Virus record (IMG/VR): IMGVR_UViG_3300020161_000179
Location: 1-37,916 of that record
Strand: one strand, 5' to 3'
From: a virus
Lineage: Duplodnaviria > Caudoviricetes
Length of the DNA stretch: 37,916 nucleotides
The translations under genes were made by a program, and so were the position numbers. This document shows positions 3,045 through 29,405 of the stretch, in pieces; position 1 is the first letter of the stretch, and each line of letters opens with the position of its first letter. The notes under the pieces are model-generated. The model was not told the origin of the DNA. It saw only the letters and a program-made list of their open reading frames with translations, and did no database searches.

Positions 3045-3058
3045 GTTACCCGATATTT

Positions 3059-3087: not shown

Positions 3088-3141
3088 TAACTTTGACATA
3101 AAAAAATGTCAAGTTTTCAAACTTAAAAGGAAAAACAAAGT

Positions 3142-5187: not shown

Positions 5188-5196
5188 GATAAGAAA

Positions 5197-5247
5197 GGGG
5201 AGCGGTGAACAGGGCCGCGTCTTGAAAACACAGAGGCATCGCTCCCC
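5197..5247 (+). other. GC-rich structured intergenic RNA element
   Basis: 11-bp stem GGGGAGCGGTG/CATCGCTCCCC (one G-U pair) closing a 29-nt interior. Confidence 0.55.
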
Positions 5248-5257
5248 AATTTTACAC

Positions 5258-7767: not shown

Positions 7768-7768
7768 A

Positions 7769-9810: not shown

Positions 9811-10068
9811 ATGTCACGTACATTTAACGCAGAAGCTAAGGTCAAGTTGACTCAGTTGATTAATGAGGGTATCTCGGTTATTCAAGAAATCGAAACTCTT
9901 AATGAAGGTCTTAACGACACTGTTAAGGCAATTGCAGAAGAACTGGAAGTTAAGCCTTCCGTTCTCAAGAAAGCAATCAAGATCGCTCATAAGCAACGGC
10001 TTAATGAGACAAACGAAGAAAACGAAGAACTCAACAACATCCTGGAGACCGTTGGTCGGACTAGTTAA
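9811..10068 (+). CDS. dsDNA-binding protein, T4 DsbA / GapR-like
   Basis: 85-aa helical protein, EIETLNEGLNDTVKAIAEELEVKPSVLKKAIKI; strong SD; directly upstream of the polymerase. Confidence 0.65.
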   Translation: MSRTFNAEAKVKLTQLINEGISVIQEIETLNEGLNDTVKAIAEELEVKPSVLKKAIKIAHKQRLNETNEENEELNNILETVGRTS

Positions 10069-12851: not shown

Positions 12852-13586
12852 ATGAAAGACTATTTGCTTGATTTAATCCAGCACACTCAGGGTTTGGGTG
12901 TGGTTGACCTCGTAAAGATTGACGGTACTGATGCTGAAACTAAGGTTTCTGCGTATGCTGATGATCGTTCAGTTGTCGTAACTGGCATTCTTAACGCTCC
13001 TATTGCTGAATTCAAGGGCGTCTTTGGTATGCCTAACTTGACTAAGCTTAAGACCATTCTTAGCTTTGATGACTTGTACGATGACAACGCTATCATCAAC
13101 GTTGCTACTAAGGATGATGGCGGAACTCAGATTCCGTCTGCTATTCACTTTGAAACTGCAACAGGCGATTTCGTTAACGACTATCGCTTAATGGCAAAGA
13201 ATATTGTTGAAGATAAGGTTAAGTCTGTTTCGTTCCGCGGTACTAATTGGGATGTTCAGTTTGCTCCAACAGTTGATGGCATTCAGCGTCTTAAGAAGCA
13301 GGCTTCGGCTAACAGTGAAGAACTTACTTTCACTACTAAAACTGACAACGGTGATCTTAAGATTTTCTTTGGTGATCCTTCGACTCACTCTGGTAACTTT
13401 GTCTTCCAGCCGGGCGTCGGCGGCACATTGTCCAAGCCTTGGAACTGGCCTGTTAAGGTCTTCCTTGCAATCATGGATCTCCCTGGTGAGAAGACTGTTC
13501 GCTTTGCTGACGCAGGCGCAGCCGAAATCGTTGTTGACAGCGGTTTTGCCACCTGGACTTACTTGTTGCCCGCACAGGCTAAGTAA
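12852..13586 (+). CDS. Sliding clamp (gp45/PCNA-like)
   Basis: 244 aa, two-domain beta-rich pattern, FGMPNLTKLKTIL, C-terminal TYLLPA, adjacent to the polymerase. Confidence 0.7.
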   Translation: MKDYLLDLIQHTQGLGVVDLVKIDGTDAETKVSAYADDRSVVVTGILNAPIAEFKGVFGMPNLTKLKTILSFDDLYDDNAIINVATKDDGGTQIPSAIHFETATGDFVNDYRLMAKNIVEDKVKSVSFRGTNWDVQFAPTVDGIQRLKKQASANSEELTFTTKTDNGDLKIFFGDPSTHSGNFVFQPGVGGTLSKPWNWPVKVFLAIMDLPGEKTVRFADAGAAEIVVDSGFATWTYLLPAQAK

Positions 13587-13951: not shown

Positions 13952-14614
13952 TTGGATAACACAGAAGAATCTTATGTTGTATCATTTATGCATGGTACTT
14001 CTGGTTCGTTCATTTCAACCATAGTATGGCGAATTATTAATGAACAGGATGAAGGAGTTTTACTTACTCAAAAAAACTCTGCACATCTAGAAAGTCCTTG
14101 GGAACAATCATGGCATCATCCAGAATACGGGGACTGCAATACACCAAACTTATTCACTGGACTTAGCTTTGATAAAATTGGGCTAGTTAAGACCCATGTA
14201 TATCCGGACTATGATCAGTTGCGCTCTGCCCTACCAAACACTAAACTAGTATTAATCATCATGGATGATGCTGATATACTGGAAGTGGCGTGGAATTGCA
14301 TTAAGAAAAGTGATGACGAAAACGAATCTGTCACTGTAGAAGAAGTGCAGCGCAACCTCACTTACCTATACGAACACCGACTGGGCCCTGCTGAATATGA
14401 ATACTTTTGGAAGTTTTGTGACCCTAGTATTGTCCCAGAAGACTTGAAAAGCCGGGTGTTATTGATTAAGTATAGAGATATCTACAAAGAACAAGGTGAT
14501 TCATTTACTGCATTAGAGCAGATTAAAACATTCACCGGGCGAGAAGCTAGTCTAGCGGTACTTGACAGCTATAGAACATACGTAAATAATCGGAACAAGT
14601 TATGGAACAAATAA
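13952..14614 (+). CDS. Sulfotransferase-like P-loop protein
   Basis: VVSFMHGTSGSFIS loop, VKTH, IKYRDI; overlaps the dpdA start. Confidence 0.5.
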   Translation: MDNTEESYVVSFMHGTSGSFISTIVWRIINEQDEGVLLTQKNSAHLESPWEQSWHHPEYGDCNTPNLFTGLSFDKIGLVKTHVYPDYDQLRSALPNTKLVLIIMDDADILEVAWNCIKKSDDENESVTVEEVQRNLTYLYEHRLGPAEYEYFWKFCDPSIVPEDLKSRVLLIKYRDIYKEQGDSFTALEQIKTFTGREASLAVLDSYRTYVNNRNKLWNK

Positions 14615-16167
14615 ATCTCTCAGCATCGCACAACCCAGATTGGGCGTTGTTTTTGCCAGCAGTCTCGTCTTTCTTCATCGCCGGCTTAGGTAAGCAGCGT
14701 GAAGGTGAACAATATTTTGACCCGGCAAGAATCCCTGCTGCATTCAACGGTGATGTTGAGAAGCTAAACTTTCTTAACGAGAAGGAAGGGTTGTATACTT
14801 ACAAGTGGGGTCTGTATTCTGCTGGTCACGCAAACTTAGACATTACGAAGAATGATCATAATGAATCGATCATTCGTAAACGTGATCGCCAGAATACGTT
14901 TATGTTAGGTGACTCTGGTGGATTCCAGATTCTCAAGTGTCAGTGGCCTGCTGATTGGAAGGACCCTAACTGTCCCCGTGCTATGAAGAAGCGTCAACAA
15001 GTTCTTACTTGGATGGATGAATACATGGACTATGGCATGTGCCTTGATATTCCATCACAGTCATTGACAACTTATCATATTCTTGATAAGAAGACCGGCA
15101 AGTCAGCACATGGTATTAGTACGATTGAAGAAGCAATTACTGCTACTCATATTAATAATGAATATTTCGTTGCTAACCGTGATGGTCGATGTAAGTTTCT
15201 AAACGTATTGCAGGGTCGTAATCATGGTCAATCAGATGCATGGTACGAAGAAATGAAGAAGTATTGCGATACTAATGTGTATGGTGATAAGGCATTTAAC
15301 GGTTGGGCATTCGGTGGTCAAAATAAGATTGACATTCACTTGATGCTTAAGCGTCTTGTGGGTATCATTCACGATGGCTTCTTGGAAGAAGGCAAGCATG
15401 ACCTTATTCACTGTCTTGGTACTTCTATCATGGAGTACGCTGTTCTCTTTACTGACATTCAGAGAGCTATTCGTAAGCACCATAATCCTAAGCTACAGAT
15501 TACTTTTGACTGTGCTAGCCCGTTCTTTGCTGCTGCTAAGGGTCTTGCGTATAACAATAATACGTTTGAGCATAACACTAAGTGGACTTATGCAATGGAA
15601 AAGACTGCTGAAAACAAGAGCTATGCCAATGACAATCGTAAGTTTAGTGACGGTGTACTGGCTGACAATATTCATAAAGTCTTCACTGACAGTCCAGTGA
15701 CTGATATGATGTTAATGAAGGACCTTTGCTATCGTGGTCAGGGTTTCTTGGGACAGCATGGCAAAGAAACTAAGACATCTTGGGATACCCTGTCGTATAC
15801 TCTTTTGCAAGCACACAATGTCTATCAGCATATGTCTGCTGTGCAGGAAGCTAATCGTCGCTATGAGCAGGGTATAAAGCCAAAGATGGTAATGGATCCT
15901 CTCGGTAATCTTAACTTCTCGGACATTGTTGATGAGATTTTTTCACTGAAGGATCGTCAACAAAGTCTAGAGCTAATTGAACAATACAGTAAGTTTTGGA
16001 TGCAAATGAAGGCTGGGCAAGGCTTCTCTGGTAAAAAAACTATCAATGCTCATACTATGTTTGACCAGCTTTTCAGCATGGATGAAACAGTAAACGACGA
16101 TCCCGAAGTTGATGATATCATTGAAGACGGCGATGATCTAATAACGGAACTTCTAATTCTTAATTAA
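14602..16167 (+). CDS. dpdA: DNA-guanine transglycosylase (DpdA, TGT fold)
   Basis: TGT motifs GDSGGFQ, CLDIP, VLQG, WAFGG, HCLG, TFDCASP, HN. Lacks the tRNA-TGT CxCxxC zinc motif. Clustered with folE/queD/queE. Confidence 0.85.
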   Translation: MEQINLSASHNPDWALFLPAVSSFFIAGLGKQREGEQYFDPARIPAAFNGDVEKLNFLNEKEGLYTYKWGLYSAGHANLDITKNDHNESIIRKRDRQNTFMLGDSGGFQILKCQWPADWKDPNCPRAMKKRQQVLTWMDEYMDYGMCLDIPSQSLTTYHILDKKTGKSAHGISTIEEAITATHINNEYFVANRDGRCKFLNVLQGRNHGQSDAWYEEMKKYCDTNVYGDKAFNGWAFGGQNKIDIHLMLKRLVGIIHDGFLEEGKHDLIHCLGTSIMEYAVLFTDIQRAIRKHHNPKLQITFDCASPFFAAAKGLAYNNNTFEHNTKWTYAMEKTAENKSYANDNRKFSDGVLADNIHKVFTDSPVTDMMLMKDLCYRGQGFLGQHGKETKTSWDTLSYTLLQAHNVYQHMSAVQEANRRYEQGIKPKMVMDPLGNLNFSDIVDEIFSLKDRQQSLELIEQYSKFWMQMKAGQGFSGKKTINAHTMFDQLFSMDETVNDDPEVDDIIEDGDDLITELLILN

Positions 16168-16176
16168 CCAAAACAA

Positions 16177-16205
16177 TTGTATTCCGTGCAATATAGTGTT
16201 ATAGT
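16177..16205 (+). promoter_or_regulatory. sigma70-type promoter (extended -10)
   Basis: TTGTAT-17bp-TATAGT with TGn; 9 nt before ATG 16215. Confidence 0.6.
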
Positions 16206-16214
16206 GAGAACATA

Positions 16215-16676
16215 ATGACATCAGAAATAAACATCTTACAAGCTCAGGCTGATAAACGTGAACGAATCAAAGACGTTGCAAAACGTATGATTTGGGTTAC
16301 GTTTCAGCGTGAGGGCATTCACAAATATCCCGGTGCAGACACCGATCCAAAATTGGCAACTAGCGACGAATATGACGTTAGTTTCCTAGGTTTCCCGCAT
16401 CGTCACATCTTTCATTTTACAGTGGCGATTCAGGTAACTCACAATGACCGTGACATTGAGTTTATTCAGTTCAAACGATGGCTTGAAAATAGTTTCAAGT
16501 CTGGAGTGATGCAACTTGATCACAAGTCTTGTGAAATGATTTGCGATGATCTATATGAGTTTATCGCAAGTCGCTATCCCAATCGTGACATTGAAATCAC
16601 TGTATCAGAAGATGGTGAGAACGGTGCTACGATTTATTACAACACAACTAAACCTTATCAATTACTCACCATTTAA
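16215..16676 (+). CDS. dpdL: QueD-like T-fold protein, probable 7-carboxy-7-deazaguanine decarboxylase (DpdL-like)
   Basis: LGFPHRHIF (LxxxHRHxF) replaces QueD CxxxHGH; also SCEMI and VSEDGENGA. A canonical queD exists separately at 22266. Confidence 0.7.
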   Translation: MTSEINILQAQADKRERIKDVAKRMIWVTFQREGIHKYPGADTDPKLATSDEYDVSFLGFPHRHIFHFTVAIQVTHNDRDIEFIQFKRWLENSFKSGVMQLDHKSCEMICDDLYEFIASRYPNRDIEITVSEDGENGATIYYNTTKPYQLLTI

Positions 16677-16685
16677 GGATTAAAA

Positions 16686-16913
16686 ATGGCAAAGAATACT
16701 ATCAAGTCGAATGTCCGCGTCAACATGATTTTTGATGAATTGGACAAGTACCGCATCTTCTGCCGCGATCATGGTTATCGCTTTGATGAAGCAGACCTTT
16801 ATAACGGTAGGAGCTATGTTTACCGACAGTTCCAAAAGTTCATTTCAGGTAAGCCAGTAAAGAATCAATGGGAAGTTGATTTGTCTCGACTCAAAGATCA
16901 GGGTCGTGCCTAA
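16686..16913 (+). CDS. Hypothetical protein
   Basis: SD AAGGA, 75 aa, within the operon. Confidence 0.7.
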   Translation: MAKNTIKSNVRVNMIFDELDKYRIFCRDHGYRFDEADLYNGRSYVYRQFQKFISGKPVKNQWEVDLSRLKDQGRA

Positions 16914-17673
16914 AACGGTTGTCATCGTTACGGGCGGGTTCGATCCGCTGCATAGTGGACATTTAAGTTATATTAAAGCCGCCCGTGAACTTGGCGATAT
17001 TCTTATTGTAGGCGTAAACAGTGATGAGTGGCTGGCCCGTAAAAAGGGCCGGTCATTCATGCCTTTCGAAGATCGGCTTGCAATCATCGATGCATTGCAG
17101 TATGCAGATTACGCTATTCCGTTTGATGACAGAGACGGAAGTGCTAAAGACGCTATAGCTTGGGCTCGTAGAGTATACCCCGAGTACAAGATTATTTTTG
17201 CGAACGGCGGTGATCGCACCCCAAATAATATTCCAGAAATGGACATGCAAGATGATAATCTTGAATTTGTGTTCGGAGTCGGAGGAGAAGATAAAGCTAA
17301 CAGTTCTAGTTGGATTCTTGAAGAATGGAAAGCTCCTAAAACAGAACGTCAATGGGGTTATTATCGCATACTTCATGAGAACGGAAAAGAAGTTAAGGTT
17401 AAAGAACTTACAGTTGAGCCTAAACAATCTTTAAGTATGCAACGACATAATGATCGTTTGGAACTATGGTTTGTTGCAGAAGGCACAGCAACAGTGTATA
17501 CTATCAATAGTAGTTCAGATGAAGAACTAGATGGTGTGTATAATAAATTTAGAAGTATTAATATTGCTGCCAATCAATGGCATCGATTAGCTAACGAAAC
17601 AGATAAGCCGTTAAAGATTATTGAAATACAATACGGCGAAGAATGTATTGAAGAAGATATAGAAAGAAAATAA
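16906..17673 (+). CDS. Cytidylyltransferase fused to a mannose-6-phosphate-isomerase-type cupin
   Basis: TGGFDPLHSGH (HxGH), GVNSD, ANGGDR, SSS; C-terminal ERQWGYY...SLSMQRH...WHRLAN...IEIQYG. GTG start at 16906. Confidence 0.88.
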   Translation: MPKTVVIVTGGFDPLHSGHLSYIKAARELGDILIVGVNSDEWLARKKGRSFMPFEDRLAIIDALQYADYAIPFDDRDGSAKDAIAWARRVYPEYKIIFANGGDRTPNNIPEMDMQDDNLEFVFGVGGEDKANSSSWILEEWKAPKTERQWGYYRILHENGKEVKVKELTVEPKQSLSMQRHNDRLELWFVAEGTATVYTINSSSDEELDGVYNKFRSINIAANQWHRLANETDKPLKIIEIQYGEECIEEDIERK

Positions 17674-17674
17674 T

Positions 17675-18853
17675 ATGCGTAAACTATTTTACATGGGACT
17701 TGAAGCGTACAACGCTCGTTACACACTACAGCTTACTGATTGGAATCGCCGTGTCTTTGAAAAGCGCGGTATTGACGTTGTGTACGTCCCGGGCGAGACA
17801 CTTGATAACAGTCAGAAGATTGTAACTGGTCAGGTTCTTGATGCACATGGTCGTTCATACTTTGGTATGAGTCAGATGATGAACCTCGTCAAGATGATGC
17901 AGCAAGGTGAAGTCACTAGTGAAGACGTTATTTACTTTGAAGATATGTTTCAGCCGGGTATTGAATCATTGCCTTATATCATTGACCAGTGCGATGAGGA
18001 TAACATGCCGCGTATCTTTGTTCGTTGTCTTGCACAATCTATTGACCCTGATGACTTTGTTCATGTCTGGGGCATGGATAAGTGGATGGGACTATATGAG
18101 AAGATGGTCAATGAGTTTGCAGACGGAATTCTTGCAACTAACGAAGAAATGGTTGCACATATGAAGATTGCAGGCTGGGAAGCTCCAATCTACAATATCT
18201 CAGGACTTGCATTCGGTAAGAGTGAGGTTATTGAGCGTGTTGGTGGTAAGATTAAACCTTTCAATGATCGTCGTTTGCGTGTTGTCTTTTCAGCACGATG
18301 GGATCAAGAGAAACAGCCTGACTTCTATATGGACTTGATTGAAGCATGGCACGAACGCTATCCAAGCAAGGATGTTGAGTTTGTTATTTGCAGCGGCGGT
18401 GAACTAAAGAGCAACAACGATAGCTATATGGCTCGTACTCACAAGATGGTTGAAAATCGTAAACTGACTATCTATGACAATCTCCCGAAGAACAAGTATT
18501 ACGAAATCCTTAACGATAGCCGCGTTGTGTTCAACTGTGCATTGCAAGACTGGGTGAGCAACACTGTAAGCGAAGCAGATGCATTGGGATGCAATGTACT
18601 CTATCCTGCGTATCGTAGCTTCCCTGAAACTTTTGCAAACGACCCGGAGCGTCTTTACATTCCATGGTCGATTGATGATGCTGTAGCTAAGTTGGATGTA
18701 CTGTTAAAGAAGGCTCATCCGAACATGGGTAAGATTAGTGACTACACTGATGGAACCATTGATCGTATTTGCGACATTCTTGAGGGTAAGGGCGAGAAGT
18801 ATCGTCGTATTAGCAGCGACTACAGAAAACATACTCGTGAAGCGAAGTACTGA
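17675..18853 (+). CDS. GT-B (GT4-like) glycosyltransferase 1
   Basis: FSARWDQEKQP and QDWVSNTVSEADALG (D/E-x7-E acidic motif). Confidence 0.8.
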   Translation: MRKLFYMGLEAYNARYTLQLTDWNRRVFEKRGIDVVYVPGETLDNSQKIVTGQVLDAHGRSYFGMSQMMNLVKMMQQGEVTSEDVIYFEDMFQPGIESLPYIIDQCDEDNMPRIFVRCLAQSIDPDDFVHVWGMDKWMGLYEKMVNEFADGILATNEEMVAHMKIAGWEAPIYNISGLAFGKSEVIERVGGKIKPFNDRRLRVVFSARWDQEKQPDFYMDLIEAWHERYPSKDVEFVICSGGELKSNNDSYMARTHKMVENRKLTIYDNLPKNKYYEILNDSRVVFNCALQDWVSNTVSEADALGCNVLYPAYRSFPETFANDPERLYIPWSIDDAVAKLDVLLKKAHPNMGKISDYTDGTIDRICDILEGKGEKYRRISSDYRKHTREAKY

Positions 18854-18881
18854 TAAATAAGAATGTAACACAAAGGTTACA
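18852..18881 (+). promoter_or_regulatory. Late promoter box followed by a 5' hairpin (folE leader)
   Basis: GATAAATA, then TGTAAC-ACAAAG-GTTACA, an A/C-rich spacer and SD AAGGAAGG. Confidence 0.55.
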
Positions 18882-18919
18882 AACAACATTAACATATCCG
18901 TGTAAGGAAGGAAACAAAT

Positions 18920-19600
18920 ATGTCTTATAACAAAACTAAAACCGACCCCGAATTGGGTCAAAAGATTCACGAACACCTCGTCAAGATGGGTGTTGAAACT
19001 CCCACTAAAGACAACTCACTAGACCGCAAAGAAAAGATTGAGGTTATTGAAGCACACTTCAATGGCATTATGAGAGCATTGGGTCTTGACCTAGAAGATG
19101 ACAGTCTTATGGATACGCCGAAGCGTGTTGCTAAGATGTATGTCAACGAAATCTTTTGGGGTCTTGACTATGATGCATTCCCTAAGTGTACAACTGTTGC
19201 GAACAAGATGAACTACGATGAAATGGTCGTAGAGCGTAACGTGAACGTACAATCTAACTGTGAACATCACTTTGTTATCATTGATGGTCTTGCTACAGTA
19301 GCGTATGTACCCAATGAAAAGGTGCTTGGTCTTTCAAAGATTAATCGTATCGTTGAATACTTTGCAAAGCGCCCACAAATTCAAGAGCGTCTTACTGAAC
19401 AGGTATTCCATGCTCTTTGCTACATTCTTGAAACTGAAAACGTTGCAGTCATGATTGATGCCCAGCACTATTGCGTTAAGTCACGTGGTGTTGAGGACAC
19501 AGGTTCTTCGACTGTAACTACTAAGCTCGGTGGTGGATTCAAGACTGACCCTGCTGCTCGTGCAGAGTTTCTTAGCATTGCACGAATGGGTAAGTGTTGA
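18920..19600 (+). CDS. folE: GTP cyclohydrolase I
   Basis: TPKRVAKM, CEHH, GLSKINR, QIQERLT, HYCVKSRG. Confidence 0.97.
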   Translation: MSYNKTKTDPELGQKIHEHLVKMGVETPTKDNSLDRKEKIEVIEAHFNGIMRALGLDLEDDSLMDTPKRVAKMYVNEIFWGLDYDAFPKCTTVANKMNYDEMVVERNVNVQSNCEHHFVIIDGLATVAYVPNEKVLGLSKINRIVEYFAKRPQIQERLTEQVFHALCYILETENVAVMIDAQHYCVKSRGVEDTGSSTVTTKLGGGFKTDPAARAEFLSIARMGKC

Positions 19601-19887
19601 ACATACCAGATATAATCAATGGGTGCTTTGAAGCGTTTGGTGCTGTAGCAGCGTTAATTAACATTATCGTACTATACAAGCACAAGACGGTGAAGGGCAC
19701 CTATTGGCCTTCAAGTTTCTTTTGGGCTACGTGGGGTGTTTGGAATGTATATTTCTACTGGCACCTAGAACAATGGGTATCACTGTTCGCCGGTGCTGCA
19801 CTCGCACTGATGACGATGATATGGTTGATTATGGCTATCTATTATTTGAAATTTAAGCCAACTGACAGTGAGGTAATAAGCAAGTGA
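19594..19887 (+). CDS. Small 3-TM membrane protein, PQ-loop/SemiSWEET-like
   Basis: 97 aa, three hydrophobic helices, loop YKHKTVKGTYW; overlaps the folE stop. Confidence 0.5.
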   Translation: MLNIPDIINGCFEAFGAVAALINIIVLYKHKTVKGTYWPSSFFWATWGVWNVYFYWHLEQWVSLFAGAALALMTMIWLIMAIYYLKFKPTDSEVISK

Positions 19888-20072
19888 AGGAAGTTTACGC
19901 TAATGCAATGCCAATGCCGGCATTTCTAGATAATACAGGAAACCTAACAAATCGTGAAAGTTTATTCCCTGGTTCCTATCGTGTAGAAACATACATGGGA
20001 GACGATAACTTTATGCGCTACGTAGTGTATGAATCCGAAGAAGAATATATTTGGAATAAGTTGAAGAAATAA
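19884..20072 (+). CDS. Hypothetical protein
   Basis: GTGA overlap with the upstream gene, TAATG coupling downstream. Confidence 0.55.
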   Translation: MKEVYANAMPMPAFLDNTGNLTNRESLFPGSYRVETYMGDDNFMRYVVYESEEEYIWNKLKK

Positions 20073-20542
20073 TGATATTCAATAAGATTAAGCAACTCAA
20101 AGAGCAAGGGCGAACTATCGGTATTACCTTTAGTACGTTTGATATGCTTCACGCAGGTCACATTGCTATGTTAGCAGAAGCTAAGAACCACTGTGACTAT
20201 TTGATTGCAGGACTACAGACTGACCCAACTATTGATAGACCGGATACAAAGAACAAGCCTATCCAGTCAATCGTAGAGAGACAGATTCAACTTAGTGCCT
20301 GTCGCTTTGTCGATGAAGTAGTTATTTACCAAACTGAACAAGATTTGGTCGATTTACTCTTGACATTACCCCTAGATTGTCGTATACTGGGTATAGAATA
20401 TGAAGATGTAGACTTTACCGGGCGTAAAGAATGTTATGCCCGTGATATCGATATCGTATTCAATGGTAGAGACCACAGCTTTAGTAGTAGCAATCTACGT
20501 AAGCGTGTCGCAGAAGCAGAAAGAAACAAAGATGGAATCTAA
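20072..20542 (+). CDS. Glycerol-3-phosphate cytidylyltransferase-like (TagD family)
   Basis: STFDMLHAGH, CRFVDEV, RDHSFSSS. Confidence 0.88.
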   Translation: MIFNKIKQLKEQGRTIGITFSTFDMLHAGHIAMLAEAKNHCDYLIAGLQTDPTIDRPDTKNKPIQSIVERQIQLSACRFVDEVVIYQTEQDLVDLLLTLPLDCRILGIEYEDVDFTGRKECYARDIDIVFNGRDHSFSSSNLRKRVAEAERNKDGI

Positions 20543-20750
20543 GGACCCTAACAAGAAGTACGAAGATTTGTTGAGGAATATTAACTTCTCATTCACTGTT
20601 CCGGTTAATGCATATAAGTTTCCCGTTTACAAAAAGGAAACTACTGAGGAAATGATTGCTCGGTTAGACGAAGTTGATGAAACAGTTGACGCAATGACTT
20701 CATATCCTCAGGCAAAGAAAATGCTTGACAAATTGTATGGAAAGATGTAA
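20532..20750 (+). CDS. Hypothetical protein
   Basis: Start moved to ATG 20532; overlaps both neighbours. Confidence 0.5.
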   Translation: MESKDPNKKYEDLLRNINFSFTVPVNAYKFPVYKKETTEEMIARLDEVDETVDAMTSYPQAKKMLDKLYGKM

Positions 20751-20955
20751 CTTAGACTTACATGGGGTGAGGCATCAAGATGTTGATGCTCTTGTGGAGA
20801 ACTTTGTTCTGATGAATCAGGACAGTTTTCCACTTACCGTCATTTGTGGTAACAGTGTAAAAATGGTGAAGCTTGCCGAAACAGTACTAAATAGAATTGG
20901 GTGTGAATACTCAATGTATCGGTTCGGTGTACTAACAATAGGAAGATTTAAATGA
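20737..20955 (+). CDS. Stand-alone Smr-domain-like protein
   Basis: LDLHG ... TVICGN. Confidence 0.6.
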   Translation: MERCNLDLHGVRHQDVDALVENFVLMNQDSFPLTVICGNSVKMVKLAETVLNRIGCEYSMYRFGVLTIGRFK

Positions 20956-21686
20956 GCAAGTTAACAATTAATCCATACGATAAAGAAAAATGTAAAGAAA
21001 TAGTTGAACAACACTATCTAACAAAAATTTATGAGGTATCAGGACCTTCTACGTTTTTGTTTTATGATTTTTCTTACCAGCTAGAATCGTCCAAATATGA
21101 CAGCCTGCTGGAGTACTATCTACAGTATTTTAATTTTGCTACCCCTAGACAAAACCTATGCACTAGTATTTTTTCATGTGTTCCTTTTTACTATTTGGAT
21201 ATAGCAACAGCTAAGAACCCAACCAAAATCATGGATATAGGTTGTGGTTTTAATATTTTTAGGAAATTTATGCCTAACATATACGGCATTGATCCCAGCA
21301 CAGCACAGTGTGATGAGAAGGGAGAATTCAACGATGAGTTTGCCGCTGCTCATAATCAAGAATTTGAATGTGCATTTTCAATTAATGCTATCCATTTTGT
21401 TAGCCTTACACAGTTCAAACGTCGGGTTGAGTTGTTTGCAAGCACTATACAATCCGGTGGGAGAGGAATGCTAGCGATGAATGCGGGTCGTATGATTGAA
21501 CATACTACTGATTCCGAAAGACTCGACTTATTTGGAACCACAACTCCTACCCCAAAAGAAATTGAAGAATACATTGATCAGGAACTATCAACAATCGATT
21601 TGAATTTTCTAGTGCTAGAGAATTTCGTTTCTGAGTGCTTAGATGACTGGTTAGATGGCAATATCAGAATGGTGTTTGAGGTTTGA
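20952..21686 (+). CDS. Class I SAM-dependent methyltransferase
   Basis: IMDIGCG, GIDP, AFSINAIHF; same motif layout as 3669-4397. Confidence 0.75.
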   Translation: MSKLTINPYDKEKCKEIVEQHYLTKIYEVSGPSTFLFYDFSYQLESSKYDSLLEYYLQYFNFATPRQNLCTSIFSCVPFYYLDIATAKNPTKIMDIGCGFNIFRKFMPNIYGIDPSTAQCDEKGEFNDEFAAAHNQEFECAFSINAIHFVSLTQFKRRVELFASTIQSGGRGMLAMNAGRMIEHTTDSERLDLFGTTTPTPKEIEEYIDQELSTIDLNFLVLENFVSECLDDWLDGNIRMVFEV

Positions 21687-21692
21687 TTTTAC

Positions 21693-21721
21693 TTGACAAC
21701 GGTGTTTAAATAGTATATAGT
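21693..21721 (+). promoter_or_regulatory. sigma70-type promoter
   Basis: TTGACA-17bp-TATAGT. Confidence 0.8.
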
Positions 21722-21746
21722 AAATTATTAATAGAAAGAGAAACCG

Positions 21747-22202
21747 GTGTTATATCTAAGTTACGGCATGAATACCAACATTGATCAGATGGCTTTACGC
21801 TGTCCTGGTTCCATCAGTATTGGACGAGTTGACATTCCAGACCATCGTCTAGTGTTTCGTGGTGTTGCTGACATTGAAGTAAGTGTCGGTGATACATTAC
21901 AGACTGTTATGTGGGACATTACTGATGATTGTGAAGTGGCTCTTGATATGCTTGAGGGCTTTCCAACTTTCTATGGCAAGAAGTATATTGATGTTCAAAT
22001 CAATAACAAAACGTATAAAGCAATGATTTATCAAATGATCGGCGATAGACTTGACTATGCTTCTCCGAGCAACTATTATCAGTATTTGCTTCAAGAAGGT
22101 TATCAGGACCATGGTCTTGAATTAAATCAAATTTATAATGCTGAAGGCTTTAGTGAAGTTGAGGATACTCTTGACTACATCAATCGCCGCTATGCTTATT
22201 AA
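21747..22202 (+). CDS. Gamma-glutamylcyclotransferase (GGCT/AIG2-like)
   Basis: YLSYGMN, RCP, LDMLEG, PSNYY. Confidence 0.82.
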   Translation: MLYLSYGMNTNIDQMALRCPGSISIGRVDIPDHRLVFRGVADIEVSVGDTLQTVMWDITDDCEVALDMLEGFPTFYGKKYIDVQINNKTYKAMIYQMIGDRLDYASPSNYYQYLLQEGYQDHGLELNQIYNAEGFSEVEDTLDYINRRYAY

Positions 22203-22265
22203 CAGTGGTCTTTGACACTCATCCCCACTATAAACATTCTGCGTGTCATCTAAAGGAGAATAAAG

Positions 22266-22772
22266 ATGACAAAATATGAACCAGTAAGTTACAAGTATAC
22301 AAGTACTAAAGAATATCACGATTCGTTTCCGTGTGCATATCGTCAATGGCGCGCCGACAGTCATTGCAATAACATTCATGGCTATTCATTTACTATCAAG
22401 GTATACTTTGGTGCTGATACACTAGATGCACGAAACTGGTGTGCAGACTATGGTGGTCTAAAGGACTTGAAGGCAATTCTTGAAGACCAGTTCGACCACA
22501 CACTTCTTGTTGCAGAAGATGATCCTGATATGGATGTGTTCAAGCTGCTTCAAGAGCGTAATATGGCAAAGTTGACTATCATTCCTGCAACTGGCTGTGA
22601 AGCACTTGCTGATATGGTATACAAGTTTATCAACGGTGTCTATATCCCCGACCATTGGGGTAAGGGTGAAGCTGAACGACTCTGGTGCTATCGTGTAGAA
22701 ATCCGCGAGACACAGAGCAACATGGCTTTCCGTGAAGGTCATCGTGAATGGAATGAAGATTTGCTAGGATGA
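22266..22772 (+). CDS. queD: 6-carboxy-5,6,7,8-tetrahydropterin synthase
   Basis: HCNNIHGY, DYGGLK, FDHTLL, CEALA, RET; SD AAGGAG. Confidence 0.9.
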   Translation: MTKYEPVSYKYTSTKEYHDSFPCAYRQWRADSHCNNIHGYSFTIKVYFGADTLDARNWCADYGGLKDLKAILEDQFDHTLLVAEDDPDMDVFKLLQERNMAKLTIIPATGCEALADMVYKFINGVYIPDHWGKGEAERLWCYRVEIRETQSNMAFREGHREWNEDLLG

Positions 22773-22939
22773 GTAACTGGTTTGTACTAGATAAAAACGA
22801 CAACATTTTTGCTGATGTTGAAGAAGAAGATGAAGCCCGTGAATTAGCAATTATCTATGTTATTGATCCTTGGACTGAGGATGCAGCACCATTCAAGGTA
22901 ATGAGTTACGATGAATATGCTAAAACGAATCTGGTTTAA
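22769..22939 (+). CDS. Small acidic hypothetical protein (56 aa; not in ORF track)
   Basis: ATGA overlap with queD; MSNWFVLDKNDNIFADVEEE... Confidence 0.55.
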   Translation: MSNWFVLDKNDNIFADVEEEDEARELAIIYVIDPWTEDAAPFKVMSYDEYAKTNLV

Positions 22940-23075
22940 GGCACTAGGCGAGAAGGCTAGTGATTGTGATGCCGAATCTGATAAAGTTGCTTGGATTCGC
23001 ACTTTCCTAGTCTTTCAAGCTGTACTTGCAAATATTTTTCTCATAGTAAACGTTATAAGGCATTGGAATGGTTAA
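22917..23075 (+). CDS. Small membrane protein (52 aa; not in ORF track)
   Basis: MLKRIWFKALGEKASDCDAESDKVAWIRT...VIRHWNG; one TM helix. Confidence 0.65.
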   Translation: MLKRIWFKALGEKASDCDAESDKVAWIRTFLVFQAVLANIFLIVNVIRHWNG

Positions 23076-23099
23076 CAAAGTAGTAATGATAGAGATTAT

Positions 23100-23267
23100 A
23101 TGACTAGTATTTCCCCGCTATTTAGTATGTACACTACTCAAGAGTTACATGATAAGGTTCGTGAATTTCGGATAAGTGATAATAAATCAACCCAATCTCT
23201 CGCAGACTTTATCGAATCAGAGTTGCGTAAAGGTGAAACCGGTTTGATGGAGAGATTATATGATTAA
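23100..23267 (+). CDS. Small hypothetical protein (55 aa; not in ORF track)
   Basis: MTSISPLFSMY...; fills the gap and overlaps the PRTase start. Confidence 0.5.
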   Translation: MTSISPLFSMYTTQELHDKVREFRISDNKSTQSLADFIESELRKGETGLMERLYD

Positions 23268-23817
23268 GAAAGTATATTACACTGACAAACAGATTGATGG
23301 CATGATCCATGATATCATTCGTCAAATGAACAATGATAACTGGATGCCTGATTATGTTGTCGGTCTTACTAGGGGCGGACTTAATCCTGCTCTAAAGATT
23401 AGTCATTATCTCAACATTCCGATGGAGACTCTTAAAGTCAGTTTGCGTGACGGTGGCGAGTGCGAAACTAACTGCTGGATGGCAGAAGATGCATATGGAT
23501 ACATTCAGGCATCTGCATTCCCGCGACCAGAAGGAGAAGCAACTAGCGATCCATCATTGCGTAAGAATATTCTTATCGTAGATGATATTAACGATACCGG
23601 TGCTACTCTCAATTGGATTAAACAAGATTGGGCTTCCGGTTGCCTACCAAATGAGATTGAGGCATGGAATAGTGTTTGGAATGACACTGTTCGTTTTGCT
23701 GTAATAGTAGATAATGATGCAAGTCCATTTCAAGTGAATTATTTTGGAACAAGCATCAACAAAGCAGAAGACCCTCAATGGATTGTGTTCCCTTGGGAAG
23801 AATGGTGGAAAGGATGA
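23260..23817 (+). CDS. Type I purine phosphoribosyltransferase (xanthine/guanine PRTase-like)
   Basis: VGLTRGG, PRPP loop ILIVDDINDTGATL, WIVFPWE. Confidence 0.9.
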   Translation: MIKKVYYTDKQIDGMIHDIIRQMNNDNWMPDYVVGLTRGGLNPALKISHYLNIPMETLKVSLRDGGECETNCWMAEDAYGYIQASAFPRPEGEATSDPSLRKNILIVDDINDTGATLNWIKQDWASGCLPNEIEAWNSVWNDTVRFAVIVDNDASPFQVNYFGTSINKAEDPQWIVFPWEEWWKG

Positions 23818-24893
23818 ATTTTTTACTGCGCCCTGAATCTGCTTATGAAAGGCCAACCTCTTATTTAAAAGATTTTGGGTGCATTAGACCCGGTAAATAT
23901 ATTGAAATTCATGCCACAGGATCAGTATCAATATGCTGTTTTACCTGGCTACCTAAATTTTGCGGCAACATATTGACTGATTCTGTAGAGGAGATATTTA
24001 ACAATATAACTCGAATGTCAATCATAGAAGATATGTCTAAAGGAAAGTTTACGCATTGCAATGATCATTGCCCAATGTTATCAAATTTACTTAGTGGAAA
24101 TGATTATCATCCATTGATAGTTCCTTCTGAAAATTATGAAGCTAGTTTATCTGCATTTCCGTTTAACATTGGGTTTAGCTATGACTCATCTTGCAACTTA
24201 CAATGTCCTAGTTGCCGACCCGGTTTGCAATTCACTAAGATGGGGGAAAACACAACACTTGATAAAATCCACGCTAAAGTTAAGGAATTAGTTTACTATC
24301 TCCTTAATCAAAATGAGCAAGTGTTGTTGCAGATATCAGGTTCATCTGATCCTTTTGCAAGCCCTACTTTTTGGGCATACCTGCAGGAATTGAGTAGTTT
24401 AGGATTTAATGAAAATTTAAAGATTGAATTAATGACTAACGGACTGTTGATGAACGAAGAAGTTTGGGGAAAGATAAAACCTCTTTGGAAAAATATATGT
24501 AGAATTGTAGTCAGCACTGATGCAGTTTCTCAGGAAACATATGCAATAGTCAGAAAAAACGGTCACATTAGTAGACTAAAAGAAAACTTATCTTTGCTTA
24601 ATGAAAAGATTCGTCGGGGTGATTTTCCAAATCTATATAATTGGCAAACAAGTTTTACTGTGCAAAAGGCTAATTACCACGAAATAAAAGAGTACGCCCA
24701 GTGGCAATCGTCATTGGATACTTTAAAAAATATTTCATTTAGTATGATTGCACAGTGGGGTCATTTAAATGACGAAAAATTCTTAGAAATGTCGCTTGAT
24801 GACTCAGATGTTATCTTACTAAAACAAATTTTAAGTGATGATATTTTTTCAAACGATAGCATCGTTTTAGGAAACTTAAGCACATACCGATAA
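23814..24893 (+). CDS. Radical SAM protein with an N-terminal SPASM/twitch-like domain
   Basis: C...GSVSICC...GNI...C.. followed by CNLQCPSC, SSDPF, TNG, VSTDA. ATG 23814. Confidence 0.85.
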   Translation: MNFLLRPESAYERPTSYLKDFGCIRPGKYIEIHATGSVSICCFTWLPKFCGNILTDSVEEIFNNITRMSIIEDMSKGKFTHCNDHCPMLSNLLSGNDYHPLIVPSENYEASLSAFPFNIGFSYDSSCNLQCPSCRPGLQFTKMGENTTLDKIHAKVKELVYYLLNQNEQVLLQISGSSDPFASPTFWAYLQELSSLGFNENLKIELMTNGLLMNEEVWGKIKPLWKNICRIVVSTDAVSQETYAIVRKNGHISRLKENLSLLNEKIRRGDFPNLYNWQTSFTVQKANYHEIKEYAQWQSSLDTLKNISFSMIAQWGHLNDEKFLEMSLDDSDVILLKQILSDDIFSNDSIVLGNLSTYR

Positions 24894-24916
24894 AACGGTA
24901 GAAAGGATGATTGACA

Positions 24917-25099
24917 ATGGACGTAATTAGTGTTATAGCTATAGTTGTATTCTGTGTAGTGGCATCTATGTTTTTATATGGAATGTGGGTACTAGAAGAT
25001 GACAGATATCAATTTAGAAAAAAGCACGGCATTGATCCTAAATATCACGGCTGGATTGTGAAAGACAAAGAAGAAAATGACAAAGATCAAACTAAGTGA
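24917..25099 (+). CDS. Small single-TM protein
   Basis: Hydrophobic N-terminal helix; SD AAGGA upstream. Confidence 0.55.
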   Translation: MDVISVIAIVVFCVVASMFLYGMWVLEDDRYQFRKKHGIDPKYHGWIVKDKEENDKDQTK

Positions 25100-25946
25100 A
25101 TTGTTCTACAGCATCCAGGGTGAAGGTCGGTACATGGGTGTGCCGTCTGTTTTCCTTAGAACATATGGATGCAATTTCAAATGCGCCGGATTCGGCATGC
25201 CAAAAGGTGAATTATCAAGTGAAAGAGAAGCAGTCAATCCAGAAGACTATAAAGAATATGGTACCCTCCCGCTCGTCACTACAGGATGTGATTCCTACGC
25301 ATCCTGGGATCCTCGCTTCAAGCATCTTTCTCCCAGCAGGGATGTTGATACTATTGTCAGCGACATTATGGAACTACTACCGTTTAAAGAATGGCGCGAA
25401 GAACACCTCGTCATCACAGGAGGAGAACCACTCCTCGGATGGCAACGAGCCTACCCAGAACTCCTAAGTCACCCTAAGATGCAGCAGCTTCACGAGATTA
25501 CTTTTGAAACTAATGGTACGCAGCCATTGCATCCTGAACTCTTTGACTATCTTGAACAATGGTGGTGGGATGGCGGCAAGCCGGGCTATGGATCAGCTAA
25601 TCGTGATCGTGAAATTACATTTAGTGTGAGTGCTAAGTTGAGTTGTTCAGGTGAAAAGGCAGAAGATGCCATTAAGCCTCAGGTAGTAGTTGACTACCAA
25701 AGCGTAGGTCACGTATATCTTAAGTTTGTTATCGCAACAGAAGATGATGCTAAAGAAGCATTAGCAGCAGTTGAACAATATCGTGATGCAGGGTTTGTAG
25801 GTAATGTTTATTTCATGCCCGTAGGAGGTGTTGAGAGTGTTTACCATCTTAATAATCGCACTGTCGCTGACCTTGCCATGAAGAACGGTGTTCGTTATAG
25901 TGATCGTCTACAGGTTCCTTTGTTTAAGAATGCCTGGGCGACTTAA
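25077..25946 (+). CDS. queE: 7-carboxy-7-deazaguanine synthase (radical SAM)
   Basis: ELFYSIQGEG, FLRTYGCN, CDS, ITGGEP, ETNGT, SAKL, LKFVI. Confidence 0.93.
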   Translation: MTKIKLSELFYSIQGEGRYMGVPSVFLRTYGCNFKCAGFGMPKGELSSEREAVNPEDYKEYGTLPLVTTGCDSYASWDPRFKHLSPSRDVDTIVSDIMELLPFKEWREEHLVITGGEPLLGWQRAYPELLSHPKMQQLHEITFETNGTQPLHPELFDYLEQWWWDGGKPGYGSANRDREITFSVSAKLSCSGEKAEDAIKPQVVVDYQSVGHVYLKFVIATEDDAKEALAAVEQYRDAGFVGNVYFMPVGGVESVYHLNNRTVADLAMKNGVRYSDRLQVPLFKNAWAT

Positions 25947-25947
25947 C

Positions 25948-26193
25948 ATGGGATTTATGCTGAAAACAGCACAAGACGATATTGACTGGGTAAACGAACC
26001 GATACCCTACGGCATTAATACTACCAAATATAGATTATCATTGTTGCCTCGTAAGTGTAATTCAAGCCATAAAAATATTTGGTTTAAATTTTCTTACCGT
26101 GTTCGTCATACATATCACGAAATGCATGGCAGCTCTATCGAAGACCGCTGGTATAATAAGTACGAATATATTAAGTTAAGGTTACAGGGATGA
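25948..26193 (+). CDS. Hypothetical protein
   Basis: ATG 25948; ATGA overlap with the downstream GT. Confidence 0.55.
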   Translation: MGFMLKTAQDDIDWVNEPIPYGINTTKYRLSLLPRKCNSSHKNIWFKFSYRVRHTYHEMHGSSIEDRWYNKYEYIKLRLQG

Positions 26194-27518
26194 AACGAAT
26201 AGGATTTCTTGTCAGTTCACAGACTTTAATTCCGCATGGTGGTATTGGACAGTTCACAAAAAGCTTTTGTGAACTGATGGATAGTCACGGAATCTATGTG
26301 GATATTATTACTGATAAGAGTCCTCAGGGCGTTGCTGATGAGTTTATTAAAGAACTCAATGCCAATATTATTTATCCATCTGATCCGCAGAGGTATACAG
26401 ATCACAGTGCTATCTTTATGTATGAGGATAGCTATTGCTATGAGCGCATGGCTAACTTTCGTGACGCAACGATTAAAGCACTAACTACTAATATCTATGA
26501 TGCATTTGTTTGTAACACTTATGAGACGGTTCAAGTAATCTCTACCCTAGGATTGTCTGAGTTTATTCAAACTATCGCATACACGCATTTGGAAAGTCAA
26601 ATCTTCAAGGATACTAAGAATCCGTTTCTTGATAGTGTTAACGACATGATGCGGCTACAGTTACGTATGCCCGGTGTCACGATTGGCACACAAAGCATGT
26701 TTAATAAATTGCATTTTGAAAATGCTGTCCATCTTCCCATTCCTCTTCCGGAGAAAGGGCTGCTTCAAGAATATGACAATGACCGTGAAGGCGTTCTGTT
26801 CATTGGACGTTGGGAAGAGGGTAAGAATCCTGAACTTTATCTCGACTTGATTGAACAGACTAAGCTGCCCGCTCGTGTGATGACTAATGCAAACGGGGCT
26901 AAGAAGTTTGAAGAACGATTGAAGAAGATCGGTGTTGACTATAAAATTGCTGTAAGCGTCATTGGCCAAAAGAAGGTAGACTTCATCACAAGCTGCCGAG
27001 TAGCATTCAATCCCAGTACTGTAGAAAGCTACGGTATTGCTTTCTATGAGCAAATGATTCAACTCCCAACATTTGCACTAATTAATCAACGCTGGACGCA
27101 GAACTTCCCAAGCACACAATTCTTTACTACAAGTAAGCGCAATATGGCAGAAGATATTAAAGCTGCATATAATCAATATCCTACTAGCAAATCATGGTAT
27201 GCTGCTTACGATTCAGTAAAACATTTTAATATTCACGAAGAAGCAGTATTCCATAAGTGGAATCACTGCCTTGACGAGTTTGAATCTAAGCAGTCCAATA
27301 CCAATACTGCTAAGATTTGCGATGAGACTACAGTTAAATATGCTGACTTTATTGCTGCTTTGGGGCGGCGCGTCATTTGTATTGACGATATCAGATCGGT
27401 GTTGGCAAACAAACACAAGTTTAGAGTAATATATACTGACAAGGATACTTGGTTGACTAAGGACCCTTCATTTGAACCTAAAGAAGAAGTAACTGGTATG
27501 GGGCTATTTGAGTTTTGA
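26190..27518 (+). CDS. GT-B (GT4-like) glycosyltransferase 2
   Basis: HGGIG, FIGRWEEGKN, PSTVESYGIAFYE (E-x7-E). Confidence 0.87.
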   Translation: MKRIGFLVSSQTLIPHGGIGQFTKSFCELMDSHGIYVDIITDKSPQGVADEFIKELNANIIYPSDPQRYTDHSAIFMYEDSYCYERMANFRDATIKALTTNIYDAFVCNTYETVQVISTLGLSEFIQTIAYTHLESQIFKDTKNPFLDSVNDMMRLQLRMPGVTIGTQSMFNKLHFENAVHLPIPLPEKGLLQEYDNDREGVLFIGRWEEGKNPELYLDLIEQTKLPARVMTNANGAKKFEERLKKIGVDYKIAVSVIGQKKVDFITSCRVAFNPSTVESYGIAFYEQMIQLPTFALINQRWTQNFPSTQFFTTSKRNMAEDIKAAYNQYPTSKSWYAAYDSVKHFNIHEEAVFHKWNHCLDEFESKQSNTNTAKICDETTVKYADFIAALGRRVICIDDIRSVLANKHKFRVIYTDKDTWLTKDPSFEPKEEVTGMGLFEF

Positions 27519-27519
27519 T

Positions 27520-28383
27520 ATGAAAAAGATTTTAATTACTGGTTGTTCAGGCTACATTGGTTCACACCTCTGTAAGTTACTTGAAAATGAATATGAAGTT
27601 CACGGACTAGATGTTCGTGAACCTCGGCATCCTGTTAAAAAGTTTCATCAGATTGACATCAATCGTCAAATTGCACTAGATGAGGAATACGATACAGTAG
27701 TCCATCTAGCTGCTCTTGTCAACGTGGGTGAAAGTGAGCAGATTCCGATTCAGTATTACATTACAAATGTGAATGGCACAATGAATGTAGTCAATCGGAT
27801 CAAGACTGCAAACTTCATCTTTGCTTCTACTGGCGCTGCTGAATTATGTGAGAGTGCATATGGTATTAGTAAGAGGGCAGCAGAGGATGTGGTCAAGGAA
27901 TATTGCACCAAACATCGTGAAACACCATATACAATCTTTAGATTCTACAATGTAATCGGTACCTCGGGTTATGCTCCCACTAATCCAGACGGTCTGATGT
28001 ACAATCTTATGAAGTCAATTGATACTAGAGAGTTTACTATCTTTGGTAATGATTACAATACACCAGACGGCACCTGTGTTCGTGATTATGTACACGTTGA
28101 TGAAATTTGCTATGCACTTAAGGTAGCAATTGAAAAACCAGCAAATCAGATTGAGTGCCTGGGACATGGGGTAGGCCATACTGTTAAGGAAATGGTAGAC
28201 ATCTTTGAGAAGGTGAACGAGAAGATTCTGTATGCTAACAACGAAGATGCAATCGACATCAAGATTGGTCCTCGTCGTACCGGTGATGCGGAACACAGCG
28301 TGTTGGAAGATGTTTCTAACTACCTAGTTAATATGTATTCCATCGAAGACTTATTAAGGCTTGACATTGGTAGTAAAGGGTGA
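27520..28383 (+). CDS. NAD-dependent NDP-sugar epimerase/dehydratase (GalE-like)
   Basis: TGCSGYIG, HLAA, YGISK, RFYN, DGTCVRDYVHV, RRTGD. Confidence 0.9.
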   Translation: MKKILITGCSGYIGSHLCKLLENEYEVHGLDVREPRHPVKKFHQIDINRQIALDEEYDTVVHLAALVNVGESEQIPIQYYITNVNGTMNVVNRIKTANFIFASTGAAELCESAYGISKRAAEDVVKEYCTKHRETPYTIFRFYNVIGTSGYAPTNPDGLMYNLMKSIDTREFTIFGNDYNTPDGTCVRDYVHVDEICYALKVAIEKPANQIECLGHGVGHTVKEMVDIFEKVNEKILYANNEDAIDIKIGPRRTGDAEHSVLEDVSNYLVNMYSIEDLLRLDIGSKG

Positions 28384-29404: not shown

Positions 29405-29405
29405 C

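Follow-up and report, generated by a model that had tools for sequence, protein, structure and literature searches.

A dpdL-linked glycosyltransferase suggests a candidate sugar-bearing 7-deazaguanine in phage DNA

We analysed a stretch of viral DNA of 37,916 nucleotides (Duplodnaviria; Caudoviricetes; IMG/VR record IMGVR_UViG_3300020161_000179; hereafter the window), in which genes of a 7-deazaguanine DNA modification pathway are interleaved with genes for two glycosyltransferases, GT1 and GT2. We observed that GT1 is a core partner of DpdL, the predicted decarboxylase of 7-carboxy-7-deazaguanine (CDG), and not of any one type of DpdA, the DNA-guanine transglycosylase; this linkage is strongly supported. 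It is likely, with a probability of about 0.6 for the reading as a whole, that some of the G in the DNA of this phage is replaced by a 7-deazaguanine bearing a sugar. Such a modification would be a variation on the known Dpd modifications; for it the linkage is strong and the chemistry unproven.

The window is a 37.9-kilobase (kb) fragment whose relatives in the viral collection reach 333–352 kb, and it is therefore jumbo phage DNA. The phage is a freshwater one; sequencing runs with matches came from freshwater, four of them being possible sources of this DNA, and they carry no weight in the argument. An independent contig was 99–100% identical to it from queD to an RNase H-like gene (L192). 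All the genes named in an earlier note on this DNA were borne out as intact open reading frames (ORFs) on the + strand inside 14602–28383, with support from families, folds or motifs. Those that carry the argument are the following.

14602..16167, + strand: DpdA, a long PA5oct-type DNA-guanine transglycosylase of 521 residues, core (similarity to the PA5oct/Paride protein and to the DpdA2 profile)
16215..16676, + strand: DpdL, predicted CDG decarboxylase, core (identity to the phiST and ACP17 proteins; LxxxHRHxF)
17675..18853, + strand: GT1, GT-B retaining-type glycosyltransferase, an obligate-looking partner of DpdL, core (fold, linkage, motif positions)
18920..19600, + strand: FolE, GTP cyclohydrolase I, core (NCBIfam FolE, 326 bits, above cut-off)
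22266..22772, + strand: QueD, core (PF01242, phrog_2389; CxxxHGY motif)
25077..25946, + strand: QueE, CDG synthase, core (phrog_2076, E 1e-52; NCBIfam QueE matches N-terminally, under cut-off)
26190..27518, + strand: GT2, the second GT-B glycosyltransferase, lineage-limited, with a C-terminal tail resembling that of the polymerase (fold, motifs, tail)
27508..28383, + strand: GalE-like nucleoside diphosphate (NDP)-sugar epimerase, optional, tracking GT2 and the GT1 subtype of the window (best family match TIGR01179, 148 bits against a cut-off of 262; GxxGxxG and YxxxK motifs present)

The linkage of GT1 to dpdL was measured in loci fetched with three divergent GT1 subgroups alone. These 193 loci were reduced to 48 at <60% identity, and the 38 that had 4 kb on both sides were counted, the other 10 being dropped. 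We observed dpdL within 4 kb of GT1 in 36/38 of these divergent loci, and DpdA was likewise present in 36/38 (27 DpdA1-like, 7 PA5oct-type, 1 DpdA2 and 1 BCSR5-type). At the 90% level of dereplication, 57 of the 60 loci had dpdL within 4 kb. Five GT1 contigs were without a nearby dpdL; three of them carry dpdL elsewhere, and the remaining two contigs have a completeness of roughly one quarter. In the clade of the window, GT1 lay between dpdL and folE in 134/135 loci. The two genes were neighbours in many gene orders and in phages of 80 kb to 470 kb. GT1 could also be exchanged in place: in one locus (L158) dpdA was 75%, dpdL 69% and GT1 29% identical, and in several clade loci GT1 was replaced in situ by a 25–29% identical member while DpdL stayed at 57–69%. 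A GT1-dpdL-dpdA-queD operon was present in five loci of Magnetospirillum and related genomes, and in a sixth a truncated GT1 lay at the contig edge.

Among the cultured phages we considered 12 with dpdL, one per lineage from 28 records, each searched whole. Six carried GT1 (Paride, ACP17, BUCT-ZZ01, X1, BCSR5 and Phosso), always at about 3 kb or less from dpdL. Of the six without GT1, five carry the short phiST-type DpdA3; the sixth, Bakedbeans, has dpdL and no DpdA that we could identify, and was left unclassified. A more general rule, that GT1 occurs with every DpdA except DpdA3, was dropped; the long PA5oct protein is, as mapped by gene order, the one that Cui et al. (PMC10516641) file under DpdA3, and the absence of GT1 holds only for the short phiST-type DpdA3. 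The test put forward in the earlier note, whether the glycosyltransferases travel with dpdA and dpdL, came out strongly positive for GT1, and positive for GT2 within a limited lineage only.

Several arrangements around this pair were observed beside the common one. The operon at L286:8832-13684 (Magnetospirillum aberrantis; also L285, L287-L289 and L292) lies in a cell genome. In L286 an unannotated 288-residue ORF comes after it, its flanks hold a CoiA-like nuclease gene and an ORF resembling an integrase, and the locus has no folE or queE match. In L516, dpdL is flanked by two GT1-family genes. Some DpdA1-type loci have an extra radical SAM gene within the dpdL-GT1-dpdA block (L326:9334-10137, L327:7060-8001, L352:9447-10232), hinting at further variants. 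In Bakedbeans and MA9V-3, DpdL forms the C-terminal part of a longer protein (L088:6221-7372, L092:6431-7312).

Retaining enzymes of the GT-B fold combine R/K phosphate-binding residues with an E/D-x7-E motif. The predicted folds of GT1 and GT2 were both GT-B, with mean predicted local distance difference test (pLDDT) values of 96.6 and 92.9, respectively, and the best structural matches of both were retaining GT4/GT5-type enzymes (MshA, PimA, BshA, WlaC) at a template modelling (TM) score of about 0.6 and 10–15% identity. Profile searches of solved structures returned WlaC and GlgM or nothing, with no match for the GT2 profile, and the matches of both proteins to the Pfam glycosyltransferase "GT1-group" families were under cut-off. 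In the GT1 alignment, R208 and K213 were kept in 121/122 rows, D292 in 119 and E/D300 in 122; in GT2, R207, K212, E279 and E287 were kept in 59/59. With two Rossmann domains, the R/K residues and E/D-x7-E, both are, as modelled, retaining GT4-like GT-B enzymes, and the near-invariance of their donor-binding positions makes both look active. As paralogues they are distant, with 12% identity over the aligned columns.

The formation of CDG by FolE, QueD and QueE is established chemistry, and all three predicted enzymes are encoded in the window. The assignment of DpdA needed remote homology. Its ORF had no match in Pfam, PHROG or PDB sequences and no meaningful one in NCBIfam, and the DpdA profile returned nothing from solved structures. 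The closest cultured relative was the PA5oct/Paride protein (33.6% identity), and hhalign aligned it with the DpdA2 profile at a probability of 96.4% (E 1.2e-9). Residues D104, D149, Q204, H270, G273 and D303 were kept in 24/24 alignment rows, and its Atlas neighbours include a cluster resembling tRNA-guanine transglycosylase (TGT; 0.93, with Pfam TGT on 17% of the members). Judging from these sequence features, ORF 14602–16167 is a TGT-family DNA transglycosylase, DpdA. DpdL was defined as a QueD paralogue in which LxxxHRHxF replaces CxxxHGH, and its role as CDG decarboxylase is a published prediction for a family defined on the phiST protein (PMC10516641). The window protein shares 34% identity with phiST CGPG_00067 and 51% with its ACP17 counterpart, and carries the motif as L58-G-F-P-H-R-H-I-F66; an estimated 3600 or so viral stretches in the collection have it. 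ACP17 dpdL and dpdA expressed in E. coli produced no 7-deazaguanine deoxynucleoside (dDG) (PMC10516641). In ACP17 the GT1 gene sits between those two cloned genes, and a role for GT1 in the pathway may explain the absence of dDG.

A profile search found no queC in the window, in agreement with the earlier note, and the same held beyond it. QueC was above cut-off in 0/14 GT1-bearing genomes or contigs, two of them relatives at least 90% complete, with control matches in 14/14. Among the 21 genomes or contigs searched, the two with QueC above cut-off were both without GT1. The divergent GT1 loci had queC in 0/38. Conversely, the GT1 profile, run against the whole genomes of three queC phages, found no GT1: 2.275.O, which has the DpdA type of the window, nt-1 and pf16. 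One ORF near the end of the window (36926–37813) was considered as QueC and rejected because its match is N-terminal only (15.4 bits against a cut-off of 22) and QueC-family matches were absent from five of the six cultured phages with GT1. Among the scanned ORFs of the window there was no family match to QueF or ArcS, for which no whole-genome search was made.

GT2 is restricted to fewer lineages. In the window's clade the order queE-GT2 was kept in 58/58 loci, and GT2 was present in 9/15 viral contigs searched whole. Among 16 cultured phages only BUCT-ZZ01, which is T4-like, and X1 had it, in the former within the cluster and in the latter as a distant member 40 kb away. What sets GT2 apart is its C terminus. 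An LF-x-F terminus occurs in 3/50 + strand ORFs of the window: the family B DNA polymerase, a DNA methylase-like protein and GT2. Within the last eight residues, LF or FF was found in 62/62 clade GT2 proteins (the strict form in 23) and in 113/120 GT2 homologues, compared with 0/104 and 4/119 for GT1. The DpdA clade has an F-x-x-LF motif within the last 60 residues in 112/125 sequences. In BUCT-ZZ01, GT2 and DpdA share matching tails of another style, which we take to resemble the clamp peptide of T4 polymerase. The tail is of low confidence in the GT2 model, as would be expected of a free docking peptide. From its sequence, the tail likely serves docking on the sliding clamp, and GT2 looks DNA-directed. 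The two-step decoration proposed in the earlier note thereby gains one independent hint. The methylase-like protein (29382–30446; PF01555, E 9e-6, just under cut-off) ends in LF-x-F-G, like the polymerase.

From the genes, folds, motifs and linkage observed, we infer every chemical step of the following route. FolE, QueD and QueE would make CDG, which DpdL would decarboxylate to 7-deazaguanine; GT1 would add a sugar to the DpdL product, and DpdA would insert the sugar-bearing base at a subset of G. In the lineage of the window, GT2, docked on the sliding clamp, would add a second sugar on new DNA. The sugar donor would probably be an NDP-hexose from the host or made by GalE. We slightly prefer a GT1 that would modify the DpdL product as a free base, ahead of insertion, to one that would act on DNA, because GT1 is tied to DpdL and not to a DpdA type and is without the tail seen in the polymerase, DpdA and GT2. 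As for the attachment site, our first guess is C7, which decarboxylation frees and which fits the linkage of GT1 to decarboxylation; the second is the 2-amino group, which fits a phage described below (PhiXhv-15) and the precedent of huimycin, where a glycosyltransferase is proposed to glycosylate 7-deazaguanine at that group (PMC7439116). The DNA of PA5oct, which carries homologues of DpdA, GT1 and DpdL, resists five restriction enzymes, and its authors read this as modified G (PMC12191111). In the most specific form of the proposal, DpdL and GT1 as a unit would trade the CDG carboxyl for a sugar to give 7-C-glycosyl-7-deazaguanine, four DpdA subfamilies would insert it and the clamp-docked GT2 would extend it to a disaccharide; we regard this version as doubtful. 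If it is true, a glycosylated purine would occur in the DNA of viruses represented by thousands of contigs, and its C-glycosylation would be of a new kind.

Several observations weigh against a sugar-bearing 7-deazaguanine in this DNA. 7-Deazaguanine offers no hydroxyl handle, and we know of no retaining GT4-type enzyme that forms a C-glycoside. Both GT1 and GT2 have their best fold matches among enzymes of small molecules and glycans, including pterin glucosyltransferases, and the T4 DNA glucosyltransferases were not among the Foldseek matches listed for either. The activity of DpdL is only predicted and its reconstitution in E. coli failed. We found no modified-nucleoside measurement in the texts consulted for any GT1-bearing phage. 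GT2 was not found in Paride, ACP17, BCSR5 or Phosso, and an Erwinia jumbo phage has a 22–24% identical GT2 homologue with no FolE or DpdA found there. Only the strict tail is selective, because a loose LF match also occurs near the end of QueE (65/71). The link of GT1 to dpdL also has exceptions: an 11.5-kb contig has no GT1 between dpdL and folE (L162), and three loci with DpdA1 and dpdL in cell genomes are without GT1. Distance matrices over 37 loci correlated modestly (rho 0.33 for GT1-DpdL, 0.23 for GT1-FolE and 0.41 for FolE-QueE). In the Xanthomonas phage PhiXhv-15, the genes for Gat-QueC and a PIG-L deacetylase are followed directly by a distant GT1 homologue (97.6 bits). Other parts of that genome encode a DpdA-like protein, FolE and a canonical QueD, but DpdL is absent, so the wider GT1 family needs no decarboxylation; this loosens the tie to decarboxylation and leaves that to deazaguanine. 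Lastly, the span is an insertion hot spot, with 425 further ORFs in 89 families, picked mechanically, across 151 loci. Much of the gene interleaving described in the earlier note arises because the span takes so many insertions.

The PhiXhv-15 genes form a row of Gat-QueC, PIG-L deacetylase, distant GT1 and a Gfo/Idh/MocA oxidoreductase, after several GNAT-like genes (L189:6735-10821), which makes them candidates for decorating a base derived through QueC with an amino sugar. In BCSR5, too, a PIG-L gene lies two ORFs ahead of GT1.

The genes in and around the span that complete its inventory are the following.

10068..12776, + strand: family B DNA polymerase, context (Pfam PF00136/PF03104, PHROG 262; LF-x-F tail at its end)
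12852..13586, + strand: likely sliding clamp, context (phrog_12062, unknown function; assigned from position and size alone)
16686..16913, + strand: 75-residue clade-conserved ORF (no family match; no match in cultured-phage loci)
16876..17673, + strand: nucleotidyltransferase (HxGH)-cupin fusion, the cytidylyltransferase-cupin fusion of the text, accessory (PF01467 and PF01050)
20072..20542, + strand: TagD/RfaE-like nucleotidyltransferase, accessory (PF01467; under the cut-offs of TIGR01518 and TIGR02199)
23260..23817, + strand: purine-type phosphoribosyltransferase, accessory (family matches; also in the Paride and BUCT-ZZ01 clusters)

The span thus lies directly downstream of the polymerase and the likely clamp, the latter assigned after phage Phosso, in which a gene of the same size after the polymerase is annotated as sliding clamp. 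Like FolE, QueD and QueE, the cytidylyltransferase-cupin fusion, the TagD/RfaE-like protein and the GalE-like protein have family matches. Genes for the phosphoribosyltransferase, a radical SAM/SPASM protein, a methyltransferase-like protein and a GGCT-like protein were not listed in the earlier note. Upstream, 107–3615 and 4489–9030 hold FecR, CHASE2-adenylate cyclase and outer-membrane barrel genes and then a run of unannotated ORFs, which includes a glutamine amidotransferase whose best NCBIfam match, gamma-glutamyl-CDP-amidate hydrolase, is under cut-off. The phosphoribosyltransferase recurs in clusters of this kind, and 45/151 clade loci carry an inserted gene of the GMP reductase family (e.g. 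L030:13708-14772); the two could salvage guanine freed by DpdA. The same pair is described in tubercidin clusters (bioRxiv 10.64898/2026.04.15.718813).

The GalE-like gene follows GT2 in 54/65 clade loci. By GT1 subtype, within 6 kb downstream and after 90% dereplication, it accompanied 38/56 window-type, 6/28 intermediate and 0/42 distant members, counts that are inflated by kinship. Two other lineages have an epimerase gene immediately after GT1, and four of the six cultured GT1 phages have none. It is plausible that GalE supplies the donor for the GT1 subtype of the window.

Another protein that may be an alternative second-step enzyme belongs to an unannotated family of 140–175 residues with a W/F-x-G-x-E-x-E start, which is not in the window and adjoins GT1 or dpdL in 16/38 divergent loci (examples are L155:9492-10004, L082:5384-5782, L084:6024-6455, L085:11638-12105 and L505:7550-7993). 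Among genomes searched whole, it occurred in 6/14 with GT1 and dpdL versus 0/10 others. It shared 0/353 dpdL-GT1 loci with GT2, many of these loci being truncated; in X1 the two occur far from each other, and Phosso has neither. We considered it as a remnant of QueE and rejected this, since only the N-terminal motif aligns, at a probability of 5%, and Atlas gave nothing above 0.86.

The same data can be read in other ways. The DNA might contain plain dDG or the deoxynucleoside of CDG (dCDG), with GT1 glycosylating an intermediate, either a pterin or the free deazaguanine, in order to store, detoxify or hide it, so that the sugar would never enter DNA. The likeness of GT1 to small-molecule GT4 enzymes, its lack of a clamp-like tail and the pterin glucosyltransferases among the fold matches of GT2 would suit this, as would the fact that GT1 follows DpdL, which has been modelled to bind only the free base (PMC10516641, supplement). 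However, the five phages with short DpdA3 run FolE-QueD-QueE-DpdL without GT1, DpdA accompanies nearly all the divergent GT1 loci, and six Streptomyces dpdL-like loci without DpdA are also without GT1; we therefore consider it quite unlikely. An explanation with a better chance, though still an unlikely one, keeps GT1 in the pathway and makes GT2, with GalE, a separate DNA glycosylation of another base or of the backbone, which is compatible with the GT1 part of the sugar-bearing 7-deazaguanine reading. It draws on the low identity of GT2 to GT1, on the presence of GT2 in 0/38 divergent GT1 loci and its unlinked position in X1, and on distant GT2 homologues where no dpd genes were found. The invariant position of GT2 after queE in the clade and its place between folE and dpdA in the unrelated BUCT-ZZ01 speak for a shared pathway. 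Moreover, no second thymidylate-synthase-family gene, which could make 5-hydroxymethylcytosine (5hmC) or 5-hydroxymethyluracil, was found in 10 genomes; a TET/JBP search also found none, though no positive control matched either.

The remaining two explanations concern the accessory sugar genes. In a variant of the proposal in the earlier note, the two cytidylyltransferases would make a cytidine diphosphate (CDP)-sugar or CDP-polyol, which the glycosyltransferases would put on the base. Both genes lie inside the span here, and a second lineage (L373-L402) repeatedly has TagD-like genes next to dpdL. However, the two were within 4 kb of GT1 in 0/38 divergent loci and in 3/60 at the 90% level, and they are patchy even in the clade, where the cupin fusion is present in 46/135 loci spanning dpdL-folE and the TagD-like gene in 84/122 spanning folE-queD. 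The clusters of two relatives that are 92% and 95% complete (L041 and L257) contain neither gene, and both glycosyltransferases are GT4-like and not polyol-phosphate transferases. The TagD family itself (TIGR01518, cut-off 165.4) was not reached, at 55.7 and 52.1 bits; RfaE domain II scored higher, also under cut-off. The two cytidylyltransferases are dispensable, and a CDP-linked donor is very unlikely. The sugar kit of the earlier note is not a single unit and divides into a GT1 core, a lineage-limited GT2, an optional GalE and dispensable cytidylyltransferases; overall, the interpretation in that note is partly supported. Least probable of all, to our judgement, is that every sugar gene serves glycosylation of the host surface (lipopolysaccharide) or of the virion and was gathered in an insertion hot spot. 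Variable clusters of glycosyltransferase, epimerase, cupin isomerase and HIGH nucleotidyltransferase genes in jumbo phages have been proposed to alter surface polysaccharide (PMC7824862), and the span does take many unrelated insertions. This cannot explain GT1 beside dpdL in so many gene orders and phage sizes and in the Magnetospirillum operon, nor can it explain the tail of GT2; for the two cytidylyltransferases alone it is a fair reading.

The T4 alpha- and beta-glucosyltransferases and other phage DNA glycosyltransferases act on 5hmC. They share with GT1 and GT2 the GT-B fold and a genomic position next to the genes of a base-modification pathway, in the vicinity of replication genes, and differ in their hydroxymethyl-pyrimidine acceptor, a pathway for which was not found here. 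The closest known modification is that of Cellulophaga phage phiST, whose DNA contains plain dDG (PMC10516641). The phiST system shares FolE, QueD, QueE, a motif-bearing DpdL, a DpdA and the absence of QueC; it differs in a 259-residue DpdA3 that replaces all G and in having neither GT1 nor GT2. The 521-residue DpdA of the window has no similarity to the short phiST DpdA3 detectable by phmmer at E 0.05, and by sequence the window does not appear to encode a phiST-type system. The predicted DpdL systems of the Pseudomonas phages PA5oct/Paride and the Acidovorax phage ACP17 (Cui et al., supplement DS1, PMC10516641) have the same core with GT1 between dpdA and dpdL; they differ in lacking GT2 and in having the small partner protein, which is absent from the lineage of the window. 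In that paper 'glycosyl' does not occur in the main text, and its sole match in the supplement concerns chemical synthesis. Huimycin and dapiramicin clusters also encode a glycosyltransferase with FolE, QueD and QueE, and glycosylation of 7-deazaguanine by HuiG, likened here by its description, is proposed (PMC7439116); they differ in yielding a free natural product that derives from preQ0, for which QueC is used, and that is not inserted into DNA.

Our searches of openly licensed papers and preprints turned up no description of DNA with a glycosylated deazaguanine; subscription papers or reviews could hold one. The sugar-modified DNA bases known to us, glucosyl-5hmC, base J and their kin, are pyrimidines. 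If the proposed reading is true, a glycosylated deazaguanine would add a purine class to these and a new shield of G-containing sites from restriction and CRISPR nucleases. The module is present in cultured phages (PA5oct/Paride, ACP17 and BUCT-ZZ01) and hence is directly testable.

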